DNA from: Planctomycetota bacterium
GTDB taxonomy: Bacteria > Planctomycetota > JAKEIC01 > DYIT01
NCBI GenBank assembly: GCA_041308285.1
Contig: JBFZBV010000402.1
Coordinates: forward strand, 1-35,233
Reading direction: 5' to 3'
Length of the DNA: 35,233 bases
Under the pieces are notes generated by a model. That model made no database searches. It saw only the letters and a list, made by a program, of their open reading frames with translations, and was not told where the DNA came from. Every line of letters begins with the position of its first letter. Positions within the stretch are counted from its first letter, which is position 1. Shown here piece by piece: positions 11,298 through 22,904 of this stretch. The translations under genes and the position numbers were made by a program.

Positions 11298-11663
11298 ATG
11301 AAGAAAGAGAATGAAATCCTCTATGAGATGAAGGTCGGAATCCTGAAGGCGCTGGCGAACGTCACCCGCCTGCGGATTGCCGAGTTCCTGCTCGACAGAG
11401 AGTCGTCGGTCAACGACATCGTCTCCGCCATGGGCATCGAGAGGACGGGCGTCTCGAAGCACCTCGCGTCCCTGCAGAAGGCGAACATCCTCAAAAGCAG
11501 GCGCGAGGGGACCACGGTCTTTTATTCCCTCAAGATACCGTGCATCCTGAACGTCTTCGGCTGCATAGAGGACGTTCTCAACGAGCAGGTCAGGGCGAAC
11601 ATGTCGCTTTACATGAGAATCGGGAAGCGGCGGAGCCGAGGGCGGATTGGGGCTGGGCGCTGA
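11298..11663 (+). CDS. ArsR/SmtB-family transcriptional regulator
   Basis: LKALANVTRLRIAEFLLDRESSVNDIVSAMGIERTGVSKHLASLQKANILKSRREGTTVFYSL. I chose the internal ATG at 11298. Confidence 0.8.
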   Translation: MKKENEILYEMKVGILKALANVTRLRIAEFLLDRESSVNDIVSAMGIERTGVSKHLASLQKANILKSRREGTTVFYSLKIPCILNVFGCIEDVLNEQVRANMSLYMRIGKRRSRGRIGAGR

Positions 11664-11665
11664 CC

Positions 11666-13210
11666 ATGGACTGGAAAGCCGAGTGGAAGAAGCTCGCGGC
11701 CATTGCCGCGCTGTTCCTGCTCTTCTTCTGGCTCCCCGTGGACAGCGCGCGCTTCACCGGGAGCCTGATGGAAGCCCTCCATCTCGCCCGCTGGTACGCC
11801 CGCGAGCACGTGCTTCTCTGCCTCGTGCCCGCCTTCTTCATCGCAGGGGCCATCGGCGTCTTCGTGAGCCAGGCTTCCGTGATGAAATACCTCGGGGCAG
11901 GGGCAAACAAGGTTCTTGCCTACGGCGTGGCGTCCGTTTCCGGATCAATCCTCGCCGTCTGTTCCTGCACCGTTCTCCCGCTCTTCGCCGGGATCTGGAA
12001 AATGGGCGCAGGACTCGGTCCCGCCTGCTCGTTCCTCTACTCCGGGCCGGCAATCAACATTCTCGCAATCATCCTCACCGCCCGCATTCTCGGCCTGGAC
12101 CTCGGCGTCGCGCGAGCGGTCGGCGCCATCGGGTTTTCGGTCGTCATCGGCTTGATCATGCATCTCTTCTTCCGGAAAGAGGAGGCAGCCAAGGCCCTGG
12201 TTCAGGCCGCGCTTCCGGAGCCGGAGGTTGAGCGTCCCCTGTGGAAGAACGCGGTCTTCTTCGCAGTGATGATTGGAGTGCTCGTGTTCGCCAACTGGGG
12301 GTCGCCGAACGATTTCATGTTCAATCTCGCAGGCGGACGGTATGTCCGGGCTGCCGTGATCGAGGCGCCCGAGGATCCCCTTGCGGCGGGATCGCGGTGG
12401 CGCATCGAGGCCCTGGAAGGCCCGGACGCAGGGAAGGAACTCGTTGTCGCGTCCTCGGAGATTGAGGGAAAGACGGCCTCGCCGGGCGTCTGGACGGCCG
12501 TCTGGAAGGCGAAGTGGGCCGTCACGGCCGCGTTTTCGGCGGCGCTCGGGCTGATTCTGTTCGCCTGGCTCGGCATGGCGTGGTGGAAGCTGCTCCTCGC
12601 GGCGGTCCCGGCCGCCGCTCTGGCGCTGCTTCTGCCTGGTTCGGGCCTTTGGGTCCTGATTCCCTTCGCCGCGGGCATCGTCGGGATCTCGACTGTACTC
12701 GCGTCGGACAAGGGCGAGGGCGGCGAGTGGTTCGGATCGACCTGGACCTTCGCCAGGCAAATCCTTCCCCTTCTCTTCGCAGGCGTCCTGGTGGCTGGAT
12801 TCCTGCTCGGCAGGCCCGGGCACGAAGGGCTGATTCCGGGAAAGTACGTGGAGATGCTCGTCGGCGACAGTCCCGACCGGTTTCTGGAAATCACGGCGCT
12901 GGGCGGCGGGGGCTTCGAGGGCTTCGCCCGGACGGTCTGGCCGTTCTGGACGAACTTCTTCGCAGCGGTCTTCGGCGCGTTCATGTACTTCGCGACGCTG
13001 ACCGAGGTCCCGATTCTCCAGGGGCTCATGGGCAGCGGCATGGGCAAGGGCCCTGCGCTCGCGCTCCTGCTCGCGGGCCCTGCGCTCTCGCTGCCCAACA
13101 TGCTTGTGATTCGGAGCATCATGGGCACGAAGAAGACCGTGGTCTTCATCCTGCTGGTGATTGTCATGGCGTGGATATCGGGACTGATCTTCGGATTAAT
13201 CGCAAGATAG
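11666..13210 (+). CDS. Permease of the COG0701/PF03773 (ArsP/DUF318) family, longer than usual
   Basis: Characteristic ...SILAVCSCTVLPLFAGIWKMGAGLGPACSFLYSGPAINI... and C-terminal ...GKGPALALLLAGPALSLPNMLVI.... It has many TM helices. The ATG at 11666 follows the ArsR stop. Confidence 0.75.
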   Translation: MDWKAEWKKLAAIAALFLLFFWLPVDSARFTGSLMEALHLARWYAREHVLLCLVPAFFIAGAIGVFVSQASVMKYLGAGANKVLAYGVASVSGSILAVCSCTVLPLFAGIWKMGAGLGPACSFLYSGPAINILAIILTARILGLDLGVARAVGAIGFSVVIGLIMHLFFRKEEAAKALVQAALPEPEVERPLWKNAVFFAVMIGVLVFANWGSPNDFMFNLAGGRYVRAAVIEAPEDPLAAGSRWRIEALEGPDAGKELVVASSEIEGKTASPGVWTAVWKAKWAVTAAFSAALGLILFAWLGMAWWKLLLAAVPAAALALLLPGSGLWVLIPFAAGIVGISTVLASDKGEGGEWFGSTWTFARQILPLLFAGVLVAGFLLGRPGHEGLIPGKYVEMLVGDSPDRFLEITALGGGGFEGFARTVWPFWTNFFAAVFGAFMYFATLTEVPILQGLMGSGMGKGPALALLLAGPALSLPNMLVIRSIMGTKKTVVFILLVIVMAWISGLIFGLIAR

Positions 13211-13366
13211 GAAAAACGTCAGATGCGGATCCCCCTCGCCCCGCGGAGCGGGGAGAGTGGGATGGAGGGAACGCCTGACGGGCTTTTGCCGCGGACGTTT
13301 TCCGGCGGCCGAGAAAAAAAGGGGACAGGTACCTTTAATCGGGAACATCAGGCGCAAGGAGGCGAA

Positions 13367-13603
13367 ATGATAAAGATCCAGATACTCGGCACCGGATGCC
13401 CCAAGTGCAGGAAACTCACCGAAAACGCCGAGGCGGCGGCCAAGGCTGTTGGCGTGGAGTACGAAATCGTAAAGGTGACCGACATCAACGAAATCATGAA
13501 ATTCGGCGTCATGATGACTCCCGCGCTCGCCGTGGACGGCCTAGTCAAGTCCGTGGGCAAGGTGCTATCCACCGAGGAAATCCGGAAGGCGCTATTGGGT
13601 TGA
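13367..13603 (+). CDS. Small thioredoxin-fold protein (redox-active disulfide protein 2 type, CPKC)
   Basis: 78 aa starting MIKIQILGTGCPKCRKL..., with AAGGAGG 5 nt upstream. The ArsR-permease-thioredoxin trio is a commonly seen neighbourhood. Confidence 0.85.
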   Translation: MIKIQILGTGCPKCRKLTENAEAAAKAVGVEYEIVKVTDINEIMKFGVMMTPALAVDGLVKSVGKVLSTEEIRKALLG

Positions 13604-13690
13604 TACGCCCCTCCGTTCAGGATTTTTAAAGGGCTCGACGACGCCCCCGCGGGGGCGACCGAGATTCCAATGGAAGGCAAAGGAGAAACG

Positions 13691-14023
13691 ATGAGTAAGT
13701 TGCTGCCATTGTTGTCGGTGCTCCTGTTCGCTTCATGCGGAGTGAAGGCGTCCGCCCCTGCGCAGCCGCCCGGGAAGCCGGGCGGGGACGTGTGCCCGCC
13801 CTTCTTCCTCAAGGACGAGGCCGGCAACGTCATCAATCCCGTGACCGGAGAGAACATCGACAAGCCGTACAGCCCCCGCAAGACCTGCGGGGAATGCCAC
13901 GATTACGACCTCGTCGTCGAGGGCTTCCACTTCCAGCAGGGAAGGGGCGAGCCGGTGACAAAGGAACTCGCTGAACGCTACGCATGGGTCACAGGGCCAG
14001 GGCAGTACGGCGGCAGGTGGTGA
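13691..14023 (+). CDS. Multihaem cytochrome c, N-terminal segment (lipoprotein signal peptide plus first CxxCH), ending at in-frame TGA 14021
   Basis: AGGAG RBS, signal peptide MSKLLPLLSVLLFASC and CGECH. It is in the same reading frame as the downstream ORF. Confidence 0.8.
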   Translation: MSKLLPLLSVLLFASCGVKASAPAQPPGKPGGDVCPPFFLKDEAGNVINPVTGENIDKPYSPRKTCGECHDYDLVVEGFHFQQGRGEPVTKELAERYAWVTGPGQYGGRW

Positions 14024-14057
14024 ACGCCCGCCCCGAATTTTCGCCAGTTGGCGAAAA
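14021..14057 (+). promoter_or_regulatory. In-frame UGA plus a SECIS-like hairpin (TTTTCGCC-AGTT-GGCGAAAA)
   Basis: Perfect 8-bp stem 14038..14045 / 14050..14057 with a 4-nt loop AGTT, 14 nt after the TGA. It has the same architecture as 22622..22657. Confidence 0.5.
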
Positions 14058-16219
14058 AGAGCAATGCGAGCGCCCTTTCCGTGGATTTGACCTCCTACGA
14101 TTTCATGACCCAGGATTGCGGCGCCTGCCATCCCGGCGGAGGGCCGGCCGAACTCGACCGCAACGGCAAACGTTATGACCTGCATGCCGCCGACCCCGCC
14201 AACAACATCAAAGGCGGGGCTGACAACGGCTTCGACGGAGACTACTACAAGGCGAAATGGGCCGAGTCCGGCGTCATTGAGGCCGACTGCCTCCTGTGCC
14301 ACCTTCCCGGCTACGACAAGAAGTCCAGGGAGGCCCAGCGTGCGAACCTCAATTACCGGTGGGCTGCTTCGGCAGGCGCGGGCTTTGCGAAAATCACGGG
14401 CGCCGTCAAGAACGGGGAGAATCTGTGCATCCAGTACGACAAGGCCCGCTTCGACGAAAAAGGCTGCCTGAAACATCAAATCGCCCCGGAACCAGGCACA
14501 TCCGTGTGCTTGTGGTGCCACGGCGAGACCGACTGGAAGAAAAAGGGCGAAGTCTACGAGCCTCGCAAGGACGTGCATCTAAATGCGGGCCTGCGCTGCG
14601 TGGATTGCCACCCCGCGGGATCGAGGGCCGCGGACGAACGCATCAACAAGCCCGGAATGCACCAGTTCGCAAAGGGCGACGACCCGGGATCGCTGGTCCG
14701 CGACGACCTCGATGACACCATGGAAGGGTGCCAGGGGTGCCACGAGACGCGCAAACACGGTGCACCCCTGCCCAAGCATGCCGGCCTTCCGCCCGATCAC
14801 CTCGAGACCATCTCGTGCCAGGCCTGCCACATCCCCTGGCGGTACGGGCAGAGCGTGCTCGTGCACGACAGCACGGCCGACAACCCCCTGCCGCGCCATC
14901 CGGCCACCGGAAAGAAAATCTGGACTTTCTACGGCCAGAACCTGCGGCCGTGGAATTTTTACGGGGAAAAGGATTTCTTCGGCGCTCAGAACCAGCCGAC
15001 CGATCGCTTCAGGCCTCAGCTCGCCCGTTACAAGGGGAAGATCTACCCGGTCAACCGAGTTTATTCGCTGTGGGTCGGCATCGAGGAGCAGGGCAAACCG
15101 CTCGACATGGTCTGGATGCAGGACCTGCGCGGCATGTGGGCTTCTTTCGAAAAAGACCCTGCGTCTTTCCCCGAGCTTCAGAAGCTGAAGGACGACAACG
15201 GCGACGGCGTGACGGAAATAAACAGCCCTGAGGAAATAGAAGCGATTATCAAATCCGTGACAGCATGGCTCGAGTCGAAGAAGAAGCCGATGGACGGCAA
15301 GGGAATCGTTTTCGTGGACGGGACGAAGGTGCACAGGTCGGGCACGGAATCGTACGAGGTCGAGGCCCTGCCGCACGAGTACACCCCGTATGCCTCGTCC
15401 TTCAAATACTCCCACGGCGTGCAGCCCGCAGGCGCGGCGCTCGGAAGCGGCGGATGCACTGACTGCCATTCCGGCGGCTCGCACTTTTTCTTCCAGGCCG
15501 TGATGCAGCGGCCTTTCGGCGCGGACGCAAAACTGCAGTGGCAGGCCCAGTACGAACTCCTGGGGATATCGGGAAGCATGGCCGAGCTCGGCGCGTTCAG
15601 GGAGGAGACGCTCAAACCCGCGTCTTTCTTCCTGACCCTGCTGGCAGGAGCCATGGCCCTGATCTGGGTCTTGTCCGAGTTGATCCTGACCGCCGGATTC
15701 TTCGGCTCGACTGCCGGGGCCTCGACTCCGGCCGCAGTCCCCGGGCGCTTGCGCGCCGTGCAGGGCGTGATCCTCATGGCCCTCCTTCTGTCGGTAGTCG
15801 CGCTTTTCAGCAACGCCGCCATGCTGGAATACGTGACGGTTTCGCAGCGCTTCCTCAATTCCACCCACGCCGCTTTCGCGGGCCTTTCCCTGCTCCTTGC
15901 AATGGCGGCCATGTCCAGGATTGGCGTGTTCCGCGGGAAATCCGGCGGCGTCCTGGTCCTGGATCCGGTCATACGCGTCATTCTTGCCGCCGGCATACTC
16001 GCGATCGCGATCGGTGGCGGGACCATGTTCCTTAAATCCGGATTCAGGGTCGTGTTCCCCTTTGCCGGGTGGGTGCGTTTCTCCTACACGCTTTTCGACG
16101 CGGGCGTGTTCGCGGCCCTTTCGGGGATAGTCCTTTTCCTGGGCCGTGCAACGTGGCTGCTGCCCGTGAAACTCGCGGCCGCGCCGCAGGCGGATTCGAA
16201 TAAGGAGACGACAATTTAA
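14024..16219 (+). CDS. Multihaem cytochrome c continuation (7 CxxCH) fused to a C-terminal domain of about 5 TM helices. The conventional ORF call would start at TTG 14048.
   Basis: CGACH, CLLCH, CLWCH, CVDCH, CQGCH, CQACH and CTDCH, with hydrophobic helices from ~15610 onward. It has no signal peptide, ATG or RBS of its own. Confidence 0.8.
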   Translation, partial: TPAPNFRQLAKKSNASALSVDLTSYDFMTQDCGACHPGGGPAELDRNGKRYDLHAADPANNIKGGADNGFDGDYYKAKWAESGVIEADCLLCHLPGYDKKSREAQRANLNYRWAASAGAGFAKITGAVKNGENLCIQYDKARFDEKGCLKHQIAPEPGTSVCLWCHGETDWKKKGEVYEPRKDVHLNAGLRCVDCHPAGSRAADERINKPGMHQFAKGDDPGSLVRDDLDDTMEGCQGCHETRKHGAPLPKHAGLPPDHLETISCQACHIPWRYGQSVLVHDSTADNPLPRHPATGKKIWTFYGQNLRPWNFYGEKDFFGAQNQPTDRFRPQLARYKGKIYPVNRVYSLWVGIEEQGKPLDMVWMQDLRGMWASFEKDPASFPELQKLKDDNGDGVTEINSPEEIEAIIKSVTAWLESKKKPMDGKGIVFVDGTKVHRSGTESYEVEALPHEYTPYASSFKYSHGVQPAGAALGSGGCTDCHSGGSHFFFQAVMQRPFGADAKLQWQAQYELLGISGSMAELGAFREETLKPASFFLTLLAGAMALIWVLSELILTAGFFGSTAGASTPAAVPGRLRAVQGVILMALLLSVVALFSNAAMLEYVTVSQRFLNSTHAAFAGLSLLLAMAAMSRIGVFRGKSGGVLVLDPVIRVILAAGILAIAIGGGTMFLKSGFRVVFPFAGWVRFSYTLFDAGVFAALSGIVLFLGRATWLLPVKLAAAPQADSNKETTI

Positions 16220-16384
16220 TCCTTCGGACATTGCAGCTCGCCGGGAGAGCCGCAATGAGCGGGCATGGCGAGTCGAATGGATCGCCCTCTTGATGCGCCG
16301 GCGAACGTCGGCCAAAGGGCGAGTGCGCGACCGAATAGATGGCCGTACATTGCGGAATGCCCGAGTTTTCGAGAGGAGAGAACC

Positions 16385-16774
16385 ATGACCGAGAAAGAAG
16401 GATGCCTGTGTTCCGGCGGTCCCAAGATTATCTTCCCGTGTTCCGGCGCGGCCGACGTGGGGGCCATCGCCGACCTCGCCGCCCGCAAGCTGAACAAGGA
16501 GGGGGCGGGAAAGATGTACTGCCTCGCCAGCGTCGGCGGCCGCGTTGCCGGGATCCTCAAGACGACGGAGGCCGCCTCGCTCATCCTCGCCATCGACGGC
16601 TGCCCCCTCGAGTGCGCGAAGCACACGCTCGAACAGGCCGGCTTCAAGAACTACTCGCACATACAGGTGACCGCCCTCGGGCTGGAAAAGGGGAAGTCCC
16701 CGGCGACTGACGAGAACGTGAACCGGGTCGCAGGCAAGGCTCGGGAGCTGCTGAAACAGGGAGTCTGCTCGTGA
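16385..16774 (+). CDS. DGC-domain (PF08859-like) putative zinc-binding protein
   Basis: 129 aa with FPCSGAADVG...AIDGCPLEC motifs. GAGGAG lies upstream of the ATG at 16385. Confidence 0.7.
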   Translation: MTEKEGCLCSGGPKIIFPCSGAADVGAIADLAARKLNKEGAGKMYCLASVGGRVAGILKTTEAASLILAIDGCPLECAKHTLEQAGFKNYSHIQVTALGLEKGKSPATDENVNRVAGKARELLKQGVCS

Positions 16775-16936: not shown

Positions 16937-17256
16937 ATGCTCGACTTGGCCTATCTGGGCTCGCGGATGAAGGAAATCCTCGGCCTTTCCACCGAACCCT
17001 TCGCCTTGTGCCCGCTGAAGGACGCTCCCGCGGCGCCCGACGTCGTCGTGGTCGAAGGGCCGCCAGAATCCTTGATGTGGCTCGCTCTGGCTGACCTGAA
17101 TCTGGAGGGAGGAATGCGCCTGCGCGCCGACACTGCAGTGTTGCAGGCGACCTGCGAGAAAAGGTTCTCGTCGAACAAATGGGGCTGGACTCCAAGATAT
17201 CGAGCCCGGTGACGCTGGCCCTGAGCACTCCCCAGGGGAAAATCGTGGGTTCATAA
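16937..17256 (+). pseudogene. DUF169-like remnant (internally deleted and frameshifted)
   Basis: MKEILGLSTEPFAL is N-terminus-like and joins directly to PDVVVVEGPPESLMWLALA, which is mid-domain-like. A second frame continues DLREKVLVEQMGLDSKISSPVTLALSTPQGKIVGS* to 17256. Confidence 0.35.
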
Positions 17257-17841: not shown

Positions 17842-18693
17842 GAAAAGGGGACAGGAGTCTATATACATCTCAAGCCCTGAGACATGAGAATGTTATAGAA
17901 TCATTTCAACATGATATACGACGAGGTGGACTGAAAAAAGCAGGCGGATTCTCAGTGCTTGCCTTTGGGTCTTCCTCGATCGCGCAGCGAATATTCTAGA
18001 TTATATCGGTAGGCCGTTCGGCGCATCCAAGCCGAATCTCCGAAGGGCCTTCCTCGTAGCACGCAGGTCCTGATGGATTCGAGTTCCATCTCGGTTTGAG
18101 GGTGATTGACTTTCCGAACCCAGTGTTTCATTTGGATTTCGACCGGCCAATCTGACAACAACGATTTTTCATCGGGCGACCCCGACATCCTGCAACCAAG
18201 GCTGGACCACCGCCAATCCTCAGCGCGATCTACGAGCCCGGCCCGAAGCGGATTCCGCTCTACGTAGCTGGCGACCGTGAGGAAGCTCTCGCCGCTTTGC
18301 ACAGGGAAAGCTTTGAAGCGCGCTTGATAAATGTGGCCCAGGCCTGACGTGCCCCGGAACGCATGCAGGCGCTGGGCGTGGGTCACCGTCAACCAATGAA
18401 GATATTGCGATAGTGTTCTGCCCTGGCGCGGCCCTGGACGCAACACCATGTGCCAGTGATTCGGCATGATGCAGTACGCAAGCATGGGAATAGGGTGCTT
18501 CTCCTGGGCTTGGCGAAGAATCCTGATGAAGGCGTCATAGTCCGCCCCATCCTCGAAAAGCGGGGATCTGTTGTTCGCACGGTTGAGTACGTGATAAATC
18601 ACCCCGCCCGCGATGAACCTGGCAGTCCTTGGCATTACGTAACTATAAAAGAATCCTAGTGAAAGGGCAATGAATGATTCCTGTCCCCTTTTC
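17842..18693 (-). mobile_element. RAYT/IS200-like Y1 transposase unit bounded by 18-bp inverted repeats
   Basis: GAAAAGGGGACAGGAGTC at 17842..17859 matches the reverse complement of 18676..18693 (GAAAAGGGGACAGGAATC) at 17/18 positions. Confidence 0.6.
17952..18635 (-). CDS. REP-associated tyrosine transposase-like protein (Y1_Tnp / IS200 family)
   Basis: HUH motif MPNHWHMV, catalytic-Tyr region SYVERNPLRAGLV, and the W..WSS motif typical of RAYTs. I chose the ATG at 18635 (MPRTARFIAGGVIYHVLNR...). Confidence 0.8.
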   Translation of the reverse strand: MPRTARFIAGGVIYHVLNRANNRSPLFEDGADYDAFIRILRQAQEKHPIPMLAYCIMPNHWHMVLRPGPRQGRTLSQYLHWLTVTHAQRLHAFRGTSGLGHIYQARFKAFPVQSGESFLTVASYVERNPLRAGLVDRAEDWRWSSLGCRMSGSPDEKSLLSDWPVEIQMKHWVRKVNHPQTEMELESIRTCVLRGRPFGDSAWMRRTAYRYNLEYSLRDRGRPKGKH

Positions 18694-18713
18694 ACCGCGA
18701 ACCGTGAAATCCC

Positions 18714-18762
18714 TTGCTGATCTTCTTGCATCCGCTATAATTCGCTTGTTGGCGAACTATAG
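18714..18762 (+). promoter_or_regulatory. Candidate ars promoter (TTGCTG-16-TATAAT) with an overlapping inverted repeat CTATAATTCGC-N6-GCGAACTATAG
   Basis: A perfect TATAAT at 18736..18741 lies inside 11-bp arms with 1 mismatch (18735..18745 / 18752..18762), 15 nt upstream of arsR. Confidence 0.4.
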
Positions 18763-18776
18763 AAGAAAGGGCCGTG

Positions 18777-19142
18777 ATGGACGAGTTGACCAGGCTTGCC
18801 AAGGCCGTTTCCGACCCGAGCCGCCTGCGCGTTCTCATGCTCCTCCGCGGCGGAGAGCTCTGCGCGTGCAGGATAATCGAAATCCTTGGGCTCGCACCCT
18901 CCACCGTCTCGGCGCACATGGCCGTGCTCGAGCGCTCAGGCCTGGTCCGGTTCCGCAAGGAGGGGACGTGGCGCCACTACAGGATTGCGGCGGACGACTG
19001 CTCCCCCCTTGCACGGAAAATGCTGGACCTCGTGCAGGGCGAACTCCGGAACGACCCCGCCTCCGTGTCGGACGGCAGGCGTCTCCGGTCCATAAAGGCG
19101 TCCATGAAGGCCTGCGGCGCGCAGGCCGGCAAAACAGCTTGA
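18777..19142 (+). CDS. arsR: Arsenic-responsive repressor ArsR
   Basis: LSDPSRLRVLMLLRGGELCACRIIEILGLAPSTVSAHMAVLERSGLV, where ELCxC is the As(III) site position. It heads the arsM-acr3 operon. Confidence 0.85.
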   Translation: MDELTRLAKAVSDPSRLRVLMLLRGGELCACRIIEILGLAPSTVSAHMAVLERSGLVRFRKEGTWRHYRIAADDCSPLARKMLDLVQGELRNDPASVSDGRRLRSIKASMKACGAQAGKTA

Positions 19143-20021: not shown

Positions 20022-21212
20022 ATGAAAGAACCTGGAACAGACGGCAAGGGCCTGGGCTTCTTCGAGCGCTGGCTGACGGTCTGGGTGGGGCTCTGCATCG
20101 TCGGGGGCATCGTCCTGGGCAAGGTGGCCCCGCAGGCCGCCACGGCGCTCGACGGCATGGCCATCTATATCGGCGAGGCGCCCGTGGTGTCCATCCCCAT
20201 CGCAGTCTGCCTCTTCTTCATGATGTATCCCATCATGGTGAAGATAGACTTCGCCGAGGTACTGAAAGCGGGCAAGTCGGTCAAACCGGTCGGTCTGACC
20301 CTGTTCGTCAACTGGGCAATCAAGCCCTTCACTATGTACGCCATCTCGATTTTCTTTCTCGGGACGCTGTTCCTGGCCTTCATCGGGCCCGACGCCGTGG
20401 ACCTGGTCAAGATGCCACTGGGGCTCGACCTGGCGGTCGGCGCGAAGCACGGAGACGGCATCGTGGTCCTGCACGAGGGCGTCAAGATGCTCCAGATCCC
20501 CCTGTGGCGGAGCTATCTTGCGGGCTGCATCCTCCTCGGCATCGCCCCCTGCACTGCAATGGTCCTCGTCTGGGGATACCTCGCCCGCGGGAACGACGGG
20601 CACACTCTCGTCATGGTCGCCATCAACTCGCTGACCATGCTCTTCCTCTACGGCCCGCTGGGCGGATTCCTTCTCGGCGTGGGAAAGCTCCCCGTGCCCT
20701 GGCAGGCGCTTGTGCTCTCAATCGGAATCTACGTTGCTCTGCCGCTCGCGGCTGGGTTCATGACGCGGAAAATGATCCTCCGGGCCAAAGGCGAGGCGTG
20801 GTTCAAGGAGCGGTTCCTCCATCTTCTTACTCCGATTACGATAAGCGCTTTGCTGGCCACGCTCATGCTCCTGTTTTCCTTCAAGGGAGACGTCATCCTG
20901 GGAAACCCTCTGACCATACTCTGGATTGCCGTTCCGCTGCTCCTGCAGACCGCGCTGATCTTCGCCCTGGGGTACGTCCTGTCGAGAATCCTGAGGTTCT
21001 CCTATGAGGATGCCGCCCCATCTGCCATGATAGGCGCGTCGAACCATTTCGAAGTCGCCATCGCGACGGCTGTGATGCTTTTCGGACTGAGGTCCGGCGC
21101 CTCCCTGGCGACGGTCGTGGGAGTCCTCATCGAGGTCCCGGTCATGCTGATGCTCGTGAAGATTTGCATGGCCACCAGGGGCTGGTTCGCGGCCCGGGAA
21201 GGGGCGGCGTGA
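20022..21212 (+). CDS. acr3: ACR3-family arsenite efflux permease
   Basis: [23 protein letters not shown]... and the conserved [12 protein letters not shown]. There are about 10 TM helices. Confidence 0.9.
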
Positions 21213-21733
21213 AAAGCTCTCCGTGCGGACTCGTGTTCAACAGGCAGTGCGGACCCGGTTTGCTCGCATTCGCGCTCGCCGCTTCCGCCCTTCTCGCCCC
21301 GGCGGGATGCGCGGACAAGCCCGCAGGCGCTCCTGCCGGCACGCAGGAAAAGCAGACGGACGGGGCGGAGACGCCGGAGCCGGCCCCAGCCCGGAAGCCA
21401 GGGCCGCCCGCCTGCTCGTCGTGCCACGAGTCCCAGTGCAGGCTGTGGGCCTATGGCGGACACGTGGAGGTCGAGTGCGCGGCCTGCCACGGCGAACCCG
21501 GCAGGCACGTCCTGGAAGACGCGGACCCGCGGCCCAGGATGAAGACCGGCGGCAGGGAACTGTGCATGGATTGCCACGATCTCGCAGGGGAAAAGGACGG
21601 GAAAGACCTGACTCCGGACGAGCGCACCGAGAATCACATGCTCTTCCTCGAGAAGAAGCACGTAATCAGGATAAACCGGCTGAAGGTAGGAGGCAGGTGC
21701 ATACACTGCCACGACCCTCACCTCGGGAGATGA
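21209..21733 (+). CDS. Tetrahaem c-type cytochrome lipoprotein
   Basis: The GTG start overlaps the acr3 stop (GTGA). Lipobox LLAPAGC and four CxxCH motifs (CSSCH, CAACH, CMDCH, CIHCH). Confidence 0.75.
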
Positions 21734-21745
21734 AAGGAGTGGAAC

Positions 21746-22624
21746 ATGAATTCGCGAAAACTGCGCTGGGCCCATGCGGCCGCGGTATTGGCGTGCGCAA
21801 TCGCGCTCGCGTCCGGCTGCGGGGACGGGGCTGCGCCCCCCAAGCCGCCTGAAAACGAGGGAAGCTCCGCCGGAGCGGAAGCCAAGACGCCCGCCGGCGC
21901 CGGCTCGGCCCAGGCCGTGCTCGTCGCTGAAGGCAGGGAGGCGTACAAGTCATGCGGGATGTGCCACAGCGAGACCGACCCGAAGATCACCTGGGACGAG
22001 GACTGGGTGCTCCTCAACGAAAAGACCACGTGCATCGAATCAGGCGCTCCTGCGCCGCGGGTCAGGAAGGCGATAATGGCCTATCTCCGCGCGCCGGATA
22101 TCCTGCGGCCCGTCCTCGTCGGCGCGGACTGGAAGCCCCCGGCCGGGATGAAGACCGGGAAGATTACGATCCCGGCAATCGGGGGCAGCGCTTATCTCAA
22201 GGCCGAGCGCGAATCGATAAAGGAGGGCGCGCCGCCCATGGTCAGGCTTTACTGGGGCGAGGGCGGCGATGTGAAACAGCTGACCGCCCCTGCCGGCGAA
22301 TACACGGTCATCAACTACTGGCTCTACAAGCGGGGCGGTAAAGACGGCGGGGAACGATGGTCGGCAAGCTGCACGAACGTTGACGGATGCCAGAACCTCT
22401 CCATCGCCGAGGGAGAGGAATGCGTGTTCCAGACCGACCCCATCCTCAGGGGATCCTTCGACGTCCAGAAGACCGAGGGGAAGATCGCCCTGTCCTTCGC
22501 CCTATACGACATAGGCGGGAACCGCGTGACGCTTTCCAGGAACGGGAGAATAGTATTCCCCGCCTTTTCCGTGTTCGACGGCGGGGATCGCGAACTCGCA
22601 AAAGGCGAATTCGGGGTCTCCTGA
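21746..22624 (+). CDS. Monohaem (CGMCH) lipoprotein with a C-terminal beta-rich domain. The ORF stays open in frame past TGA 22622 to TAG 22753.
   Basis: AAGGAG RBS, lipobox ALASGC and one CxxCH. The 42 codons after the TGA have about 79% GC at third positions, which is coding-like. Confidence 0.7.
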   Translation: MNSRKLRWAHAAAVLACAIALASGCGDGAAPPKPPENEGSSAGAEAKTPAGAGSAQAVLVAEGREAYKSCGMCHSETDPKITWDEDWVLLNEKTTCIESGAPAPRVRKAIMAYLRAPDILRPVLVGADWKPPAGMKTGKITIPAIGGSAYLKAERESIKEGAPPMVRLYWGEGGDVKQLTAPAGEYTVINYWLYKRGGKDGGERWSASCTNVDGCQNLSIAEGEECVFQTDPILRGSFDVQKTEGKIALSFALYDIGGNRVTLSRNGRIVFPAFSVFDGGDRELAKGEFGVS

Positions 22625-22657
22625 GGGGCTTTCACCGCGGACTGGAGTTCCAGTCCG
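22622..22657 (+). promoter_or_regulatory. In-frame UGA plus a SECIS-like hairpin (CGGACTGG-AGTT-CCAGTCCG)
   Basis: Perfect 8-bp stem 22638..22645 / 22650..22657 with loop AGTT, 13 nt after the TGA. Confidence 0.45.
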
Positions 22658-22904
22658 GAAGTCATGAAGGGGGACCTGCAGGCGAGACTGGAATTCGACT
22701 CGGGACCTTTCAAGGCGGAGTGCGTGTCGGTCATTGACCTGCCCGGGGAGTAGGAGCGCGTCAATAGGCCGGACTGTTTCCGGCTGTTCGGCATCCGTAC
22801 GCGGCTCTGCCCCCGGACAGAGGGATGCGAATGCCCCGAGCGGGGTCGAGGGACTTCGCCGGTAGATGCCGCCATGGCAGCCTGTCAAGTCACGTTATCT
22901 ATCA

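Follow-up and report, generated by a model that had tools for sequence, protein, structure and literature searches.

Enzymes that combine haem with selenocysteine (Sec) were first shown only in 2026, with MccSep (PMC13510729). MccSep, or ExtKL (NF040886), is a pentahaem cytochrome c selenoprotein polysulfide reductase of Geobacter sulfurreducens; in its active site, a His/Cys-ligated haem is joined to a nearby Sec, as shown structurally (PMC13510729). The 2026 review of the prokaryotic selenoproteome includes only three haem-related families: ExtKL (NF040886), GSU2204 (NF041027) and the octahaem cytochrome TIGR04315. TsdA and SoxAX are His/Cys-ligated haem enzymes (PMC13510729, introduction). 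Several Planctomycetes have complete sets of Sec-insertion genes (PMC4807772), and Candidatus (Ca.) Brocadia sinica is reported to have a Sec-type MccSep with an element resembling a Sec insertion sequence (SECIS; PMC13510729). The gene considered here, 21746..22753, is carried by a contig of a Planctomycetota bacterium (JBFZBV010000402.1, assembly GCA_041308285.1); the whole stretch analysed, 35,233 nucleotides (nt), is referred to as the window. Its in-frame UGA at 22622..22624 is very probably decoded as Sec, judging from sequence comparison, in an exported monohaem c-type cytochrome of 335 residues. This protein would define a new selenoprotein family with a standard recoding mechanism, the unusual feature being the complete absence of orthologues of the Cys form.

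An earlier note, made from the letters of the window, had proposed that this UGA and another one upstream are recoded in two cytochrome genes. Its description of the gene is borne out: the open reading frame (ORF) 21746..22624 closes with ...KGEFGVS-TGA (TGA, 22622..22624); the same frame stays open for 42 further codons (GAFTADWSSSPEVMKGDLQARLEFDSGPFKAECVSVIDLPGE) up to the TAG at 22751..22753; G or C was again counted at 33 of 42 third positions (0.79, vs 0.81 in the upstream ORF). With read-through, the translation product has 335 residues, a single Sec 42 residues before the C-terminus and the end DLPGE-TAG. The caveat in the note that 42 open codons alone have little meaning is fair; the decisive evidence is comparative. 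The gene was placed downstream of acr3, which is true, but the two are not adjacent: a tetrahaem cytochrome gene (21209..21733) lies between them.

In public annotation, 19/19 homologues from a collection of 5.8 billion proteins end at the same aligned column, and so do 24/24 homologues found with the family profile; the extension is spanned by none of either set. A uniform annotated end fits a real stop as well as a uniform truncation by gene callers; therefore, the DNA of the loci was compared. The set includes 21 homologous loci fetched from genomes and metagenomes and two more from distant subfamilies; with the window, this makes 24 loci. The codon at the site is TGA in all of them (22/22 core loci and both distant subfamilies), down to 26% identity. 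The terminal stops of the same genes are mixed (TAG, TAA, TGA). The frame of the tail is open over 38-49 codons in every locus of sufficient length, frameshifts are absent from it, and its peptide is conserved: U-G-[SA]-[FYL]-[ST]-x-x-W ... [TS]-G-P-F-x-[LFM]-x-G. Over seven phylogenetically independent pairs, substitutions in the tail at codon positions 1/2/3 number 82/68/135; this excess at position 3 identifies the tail as coding sequence. The earlier note had considered that homologues might end at the TGA and have nothing similar to the extension. The annotated proteins do end there, but in every locus that is long enough, the DNA beyond that point encodes, in the same frame, a sequence clearly similar to the extension. 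All named relatives of the family are Planctomycetota. The closest locus (L001, DYIT01000024.1) is labelled Ca. Kuenenia stuttgartiensis; this taxonomic label looks doubtful because the locus has 62% GC, whereas the reference Kuenenia genome has about 41%.

An exhaustive HMMER search of 1.84 billion representatives yielded 48 relatives. Of 55 superfamily representatives, 50 end precisely at the Sec column. A sense codon takes the place of the UGA in four distant relatives (P0051, P0060, P0068, P0071), in which about 43 residues past the site align with the tail. The residue found opposite the UGA, which the note had proposed to look up, is thus encoded by TGA in every locus compared and is Q, E or S in the few sense-codon relatives; it is never Cys. 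AF2 models were made for the truncated part of the target (292 residues) and for the full-length sense-codon relative P0060. The P0060 model (pLDDT 89.9, pTM 0.82) has four beta-strands in the tail, at pLDDT 87-96, and the residue equivalent to Sec sits in a turn between two strands. In the model of the truncated target, confidence drops at the cut end. Since the tail of P0060 is modelled as ordered strands, the tail would belong to the fold, and a protein terminated at the UGA would miss it.

The perfect 8-bp hairpin reported 13 nt past the TGA, CGGACTGG-AGTT-CCAGTCCG at 22638..22657, is also confirmed. Its 20 nt fold at -13.7 kcal/mol (z = -5.1; 0/200 shuffles as stable). Only eight perfect 8-bp hairpins with loops of 3-8 nt are found in the window; the AGTT loop occurs in just two of them, and both come after an in-frame TGA of a cytochrome gene, a pattern that exceeds chance. 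Among the homologues, the hairpin is found at an identical offset in every locus with enough downstream sequence (20/22), with stems of 5-9 bp and loops of 3-5 nt. Covariation was analysed on 17 distinct hairpin sequences, as the note had suggested, and the hairpin proved to be conserved with compensatory changes. In the 8-bp helix, 89% of cells are paired, and compensatory double changes occur at five of eight pairs, one of which is AU, UA or CG depending on the sequence. The covariation score is 0.544 vs 0.211 in shuffles (0/500 as high), and slid registers do not exceed 0.175. The residues encoded by the arms vary by lineage (D-W..S-P, P-W..K-D, L-W..Q-R) and the pairing is kept, which places the constraint on the RNA. 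In the same 17 sequences, the loop G is invariant and the following U nearly so.

The consensus of bacterial SECIS (bSECIS; PMC13188914, Fig. 2 legend) includes an apical loop of 3-9 nt, an upper stem of 4-16 bp, a G in loop position 1 or 2, usually followed by G or U, and a minimum free energy (MFE) of -7.5 kcal/mol or lower. The hairpin has a 4-nt loop on an 8-bp stem, with G22647 at loop position 2 followed by U22648. Its distance from UGA to loop, 21 nt (13-nt spacer and 8-nt stem), falls within the limits of the consensus, as do its energies over 20 nt (given above) and over 40 nt (-18.9 kcal/mol). It also agrees with the description given with the structure of SelB, in which the stem has 6-8 bp and the loop, some 20 nt past the UGA, a conserved G (PMC4605307). 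A lower stem may extend it; the UUC/GAA core of this stem recurs only in the closest subgroup and its conservation is weak. Altogether, the identification of the stem-loop 22638..22657 as a standard bacterial SECIS is strongly supported by sequence conservation and predicted folding.

The ability of the organism to decode Sec is indicated most strongly, and independently, by the other UGA of the window. At the column of UGA 14021, Cys is found in 119/119 full-length homologues examined (...GNYGGNW-C-SPAP...), a classical Sec/Cys signature, from which it follows that the organism decodes Sec. UGA is the stop of 17 of the 24 other likely genes of the window, including Acr3, which matches its model from end to end; the code is therefore not reassigned. 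The hairpin at the twin site folds at -9.7 kcal/mol (z = -4.0). The cytochrome encoded there (13670..16219) has a C-terminal membrane region and more than 1,300 full-length homologues, among which the Sec form appears rare. Public annotation splits this selenoprotein and holds only a C-terminal fragment of 712 amino acids (aa; P0076).

The two hairpins were compared, since the note had described them as identical in stem length, loop and spacing. Stem length and loop do match those of TTTTCGCC-AGTT-GGCGAAAA (14038..14057); the spacing does not (14 vs 13 nt). A covariance model built from the SECIS alignment of the family finds the hairpin at 22638..22657 at 44.2 bits; the hairpin at 14038..14057 is not among its hits at E up to 10, and homology of the two sequences was rejected. 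Real SECIS loops are restricted to N-G-U-N, so that the shared AGUU loop is only mildly informative. The common recoding signal proposed for the two cytochromes thus stands as far as recoding is concerned, but not as a shared sequence element: the two are best described as independent, generic SECIS elements. A third candidate (TGA at 17253, minus strand, in a frame open both before and after it, with a hairpin of 7 bp and loop GAGTG) was rejected as due to chance; its translation is of low complexity and not protein-like.

Table 1. Features of the selenoprotein gene, its putative SECIS and related elements of the window. Positions are those of the window; +, forward strand.
Feature	Position	Strand	Remarks
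Upstream 292 codons of the putative selenoprotein gene	21746..22621	+	Publicly a 292-aa hypothetical protein (P0001)
In-frame UGA, very probably read as Sec (U293)	22622..22624	+	TGA at this column in 24/24 homologous loci; terminal stops mixed
42-codon C-terminal extension with G-A-F-T-x-x-W and S-G-P-F motifs	22625..22750	+	Conserved in-frame peptide
True stop TAG, from reading of the sequence	22751..22753	+	
Putative upper SECIS stem-loop, 8-bp stem, AGUU loop 22646..22649	22638..22657	+	Conserved G at 22647 and U at 22648
Possible lower stem, 22627..22632 with 22658..22663, 5-nt bulge	22627..22663	+	-18.9 kcal/mol over 40 nt; tentative
Tetrahaem cytochrome c gene, conserved upstream partner	21209..21733	+	Four CxxCH; Pfam Paired_CXXCH_1, Cytochrome_C7; called as a 174-aa gene
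ArsR-family regulator heading the arsR-arsM-acr3-cytochrome cluster	18774..19142	+	Pfam HTH_5, E = 6e-15
Twin site: UGA 14021..14023 in multihaem cytochrome gene 13670..16219, hairpin 14038..14057	14021..14057	+	8 bp, AGUU loop

Some results weigh against Sec at 22622. The Rfam SECIS families give no match at gathering score in the window and none at E up to 10 in 22560..22720; the bacterial SECIS models of Rfam are lineage-specific, and little weight is given to this result for that reason. None of selA, selB, selC and selD was found in the window or in the fetched loci, nor was a tRNA-Sec detected in the window or in 13 loci. Searches of 5.8 billion proteins and 1.84 billion representatives returned no orthologue of the Cys form, so that the customary pairing of Sec and Cys forms is missing.

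The lack of a Cys orthologue, the Q, E or S of the sense-codon relatives and the lack of sel genes would also be compatible with a programmed read-through that does not involve Sec. The hairpin would slow termination and a near-cognate or suppressor tRNA would insert Trp, Cys, Arg or Gly, giving the same 335 residues; continuity of the coding sequence says nothing about the inserted residue. This explanation is nevertheless very unlikely. The hairpin falls within each specific limit of the bSECIS consensus, down to its loop, where an invariant G precedes a U at the right distance from the UGA; the other UGA of the window aligns with Cys throughout its homologues and has the same type of hairpin; and a replacement by a sense codon would be expected in some of the lineages that keep the UGA (50/55). 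Moreover, hairpin-driven read-through of UGA without Sec, conserved across a bacterial protein family, is not known as an established mechanism. The insertion of Sec at 22622, in preference to any other residue, and the binding of SelB to the hairpin are both inferred from sequence.

It is still less probable that the UGA is a genuine stop, with a protein of 292 residues followed by a regulatory or terminator hairpin or by an independent small ORF. All public gene calls end at this codon, a GC-rich hairpin past a stop could resemble a terminator, and 42 open codons alone are unremarkable in DNA with 63% GC. However, a mere stop would hardly be TGA in 24/24 loci when the terminal stops of the family are mixed, and no T-run comes after the hairpin. 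Downstream of the codon, a peptide without a start codon of its own is conserved in frame and shows the third-position bias of substitutions; the sense-codon relatives run through the site and align with the tail, for which ordered beta-strands are predicted, and the truncated model loses confidence at the cut end. A code in which UGA is sense everywhere (Trp or Gly, codes 4 or 25) would account for two in-frame UGAs within one 35-kb window; it is extremely improbable, as UGA ends 17/24 likely genes, full-length Acr3 among them, as SECIS-type hairpins follow both in-frame UGAs, and as the UGA at 14021 aligns with Cys and not with Trp or Gly. A pseudogene or a sequencing or assembly error, for which nothing speaks except the internal stop itself, has a negligible probability, as 24 independent assemblies, which differ in sample and lineage, share the TGA and a tail free of frameshifts.

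Decoding of the UGA as Sec being the preferred explanation, translation would proceed as follows. The ribosome would hold the UGA in its A site while SelB, carrying Sec-tRNA(Sec), would bind the apical loop (G22647, U22648) of the hairpin that starts 13 nt downstream; SelB would deliver Sec in competition with release factor 2, and translation would go on for 42 codons, into the last beta-strands of the second of two beta-sandwich domains. The assignment of the tail to these strands relies on the structural models.

The layout of the protein is as follows: signal peptide with a lipobox (LASGC25; codon of Cys25 at 21818..21820), small helical class-I-like cytochrome c domain, two Ig-like beta-sandwiches. 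The AF2 model of the 292-aa part includes a helical cytochrome c-like domain and a confident beta domain. The haem c motif C70-G-M-C-H74, encoded at 21953..21967, is the sole CxxCH of the target. CxxCH and Cys96 (codon 22031..22033; the invariant Cys) are present in 53/55 superfamily representatives. Cys215 (codon 22388..22390) was considered as a universal partner of Sec and rejected: it is restricted to the core family (30/55 representatives). The N-terminal helix, CxxCH and C-terminal helix expected of a class I cytochrome c are present, according to a weak profile match and to a helical domain in both AF2 models; there is no conserved Met or second His, and thus no class I sixth-ligand Met. 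Cys96 occupies the loop that precedes the last helix of this domain, the usual place of the Met ligand in class I cytochromes.

The universal residues are therefore the CxxCH haem site, Cys96 and Sec, with neither Met nor second His, from which a haem and a nucleophilic selenol are deduced to be the likely active centre. The haem would possibly be His/Cys96-ligated. Comparison of the sequence profile with the PDB gives a weak match to cytochrome c subunits of bc1 complexes and to cytochrome c6, in the region GKxxF..CxxCH, which corresponds to the generic motif only. The fold search gives no significant hit with the truncated model of the target; with the P0060 model, it gives only tandem Ig/FN3-like sandwiches and DUF3823 proteins (TM about 0.2).

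The tetrahaem cytochrome gene is directly upstream of the homologue in 14/14 loci with enough sequence, and the four CxxCH motifs are present in 12/12 copies examined. The two-gene module thus encodes 4 + 1 = 5 haems and one Sec. In the window, the four letters GTGA (21209..21212) contain both the GTG start of the tetrahaem gene and the TGA stop of acr3, an overlap which suggests translational coupling within an arsR-arsM-acr3-cytochrome-selenoprotein operon. ArsR homologues are close to the module in six loci. The link to "arsenic-type clusters" made by the note is loose: ArsR recurs, but acr3 is a neighbour only in the window and in L001, and the invariant neighbour is the tetrahaem cytochrome. 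On the same synteny, acr3 and arsM were rejected as defining neighbours.

Other neighbours were noted. In one distant locus, a multihaem/cytochrome b fusion is found downstream of the module. The selenoprotein with UGA 14021 is flanked by an ArsP-type permease, a Thioredoxin_3 protein and a DGC-domain protein (11540..13603 and 16265..16774); ArsP and Thioredoxin_3 homologues are also found near the target module in two distant loci (L009, L019). Between the two arsenic-type clusters of the window, there is a REP-associated tyrosine transposase (IS200/Y1; 17952..18731, minus strand; 78.3 bits vs a cut-off of 80).

The frequent presence of an ArsR-type regulator next to the module suggests redox chemistry in the periplasm, the substrate being a metalloid or a chalcogen. 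That the haem and selenol have a redox function on such a substrate is put forward tentatively, and it is more doubtful than the decoding itself. Neither structure nor sequence searches found a relative of known activity, acr3 is adjacent only in the window and in its closest relative, and arsM was not detected beside the module in any fetched locus; all this weighs against such a function. The tetrahaem cytochrome encoded upstream would feed or drain the electrons of the haem-selenol centre. In a more specific and equally speculative form of the proposal, which is rather unlikely, the tetrahaem protein and the monohaem Sec protein would be a convergent, split counterpart of MccSep, in which a His/Cys96-ligated haem and an obligatory selenol would act on a periplasmic metalloid or chalcogen under ArsR-type control. 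The substrate could for example be an arsenic species exported by Acr3, which would be oxidised or reduced. If true, this would represent a new class of haem-selenium oxidoreductases and a new component of arsenic/selenium cycling in Planctomycetota. The ArsR association and the arsR-arsM-acr3 operon of the window suggest that selenium use is tied to metalloid stress in anaerobic Planctomycetota.

The family includes variants. The distant subfamily that groups L022 (1909..2787) and P0043-P0061 (about 26% identity) has an annotated end ...[LM]-x-Y-G at the Sec column; L022, the sole locus of this subfamily checked, has the TGA, after which the tail stays in frame and includes DTGPF; the loop of its hairpin is GGU, and the stem lacks the Trp codon. 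P0053 (642 aa) is a fusion to an N-terminal domain of about 400 residues, of no known type. The homologue of L014 and L015 has a short in-frame tandem repeat (ASSAER, four copies) in a loop of the beta domain. In one subfamily, a second in-frame TGA is found near the C-terminus (L004, 6874; L006, 6874; L012, 1090; L016, 3109; L021, 1171), the tail being ...G-C-TGA-G/P-K/N-TAG/TAA. A covarying hairpin lies 13 nt past this second TGA, in the 3' untranslated region (for example GTCTCTGCG-GGC-CGCAGAGAC vs GCCCCTGCG-GGT-CGCAGGGGC). From their sequences, the members of this subfamily look like double selenoproteins with a Cys-Sec-Gly-Lys/Asn tail.

Pfam and NCBIfam (June 2026 release) have no model matching the target or 14 diverse full-length relatives, and the family is absent from the 2026 selenoproteome review. 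Every public copy found is about 40 residues short and is labelled hypothetical or unlabelled. With a family model that spans the UGA, dozens of metagenomic entries would be corrected and the prokaryotic selenoproteome would gain a family. The family appears, from its sequences, to be obligately Sec-dependent, which is unusual and makes it a useful case for asking what selenium does at a haem centre that sulfur cannot. It would be a second example of haem plus Sec, unrelated to the first.

The recoding signal resembles the SECIS of fdhF type in that it is a stem-loop within the coding sequence, immediately past the Sec UGA, whose 4-nt apical loop carries GU at positions 2 and 3. As in elements of this type and those of bSECISearch, the upper stem has 7-8 bp, 21 nt separate the UGA from the loop, and the MFE lies far under the limit of -7.5 kcal/mol. 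Several family members have the apical loop GGUC, which is that of the SECIS of Escherichia coli fdhF. Unlike the fdhF type, the perfect upper stem of the target shows no bulged U and is built around an invariant Trp codon (UGG). At the C-terminus, the subfamily with two TGAs (L004, L006, L012, L016, L021) resembles UXX-star proteins (NF041114 and similar) and the GCUG of mammalian TrxR by its end ...G-C-U-G-[KN]-stop, in which Sec is predicted; this motif is absent from the protein of the window, which has a different end.

Among haem proteins, GSU2204 (NF041027) and the octahaem cytochromes of the tetrathionate reductase family (TIGR04315) are, like the target, exported CXXCH proteins with Sec; neither the target nor its relatives match these models, and the multihaem protein 13670..16219 scores 26.9 bits on TIGR04315, vs a cut-off of 375. 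TsdA and SoxAX share with the target a class-I-like cytochrome c domain and, as judged from conservation, a possible Cys ligand, the invariant Cys being in the loop usual for the Met ligand; both differ from it by having neither Sec nor beta-sandwich domains. The comparison with MccSep is the closest. No match to NF040886 was found for the target, 14 diverse relatives or the tetrahaem partner. The Sec protein has a single CxxCH, the four others being encoded by a separate upstream gene; its non-haem part consists of two Ig-like beta-sandwiches; and MccSep has Cys-type homologues, whereas the target family has none. Like MccSep, the target would be a c-type haem protein of the periplasm that contains a single Sec, and its UGA is followed by a SECIS-like hairpin. 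Its universal residues are likewise a haem site, one extra Cys, whose ligation of the haem is suggested here by conservation, and Sec; the two-gene module and MccSep have the same cofactor count, five haems and one Sec.

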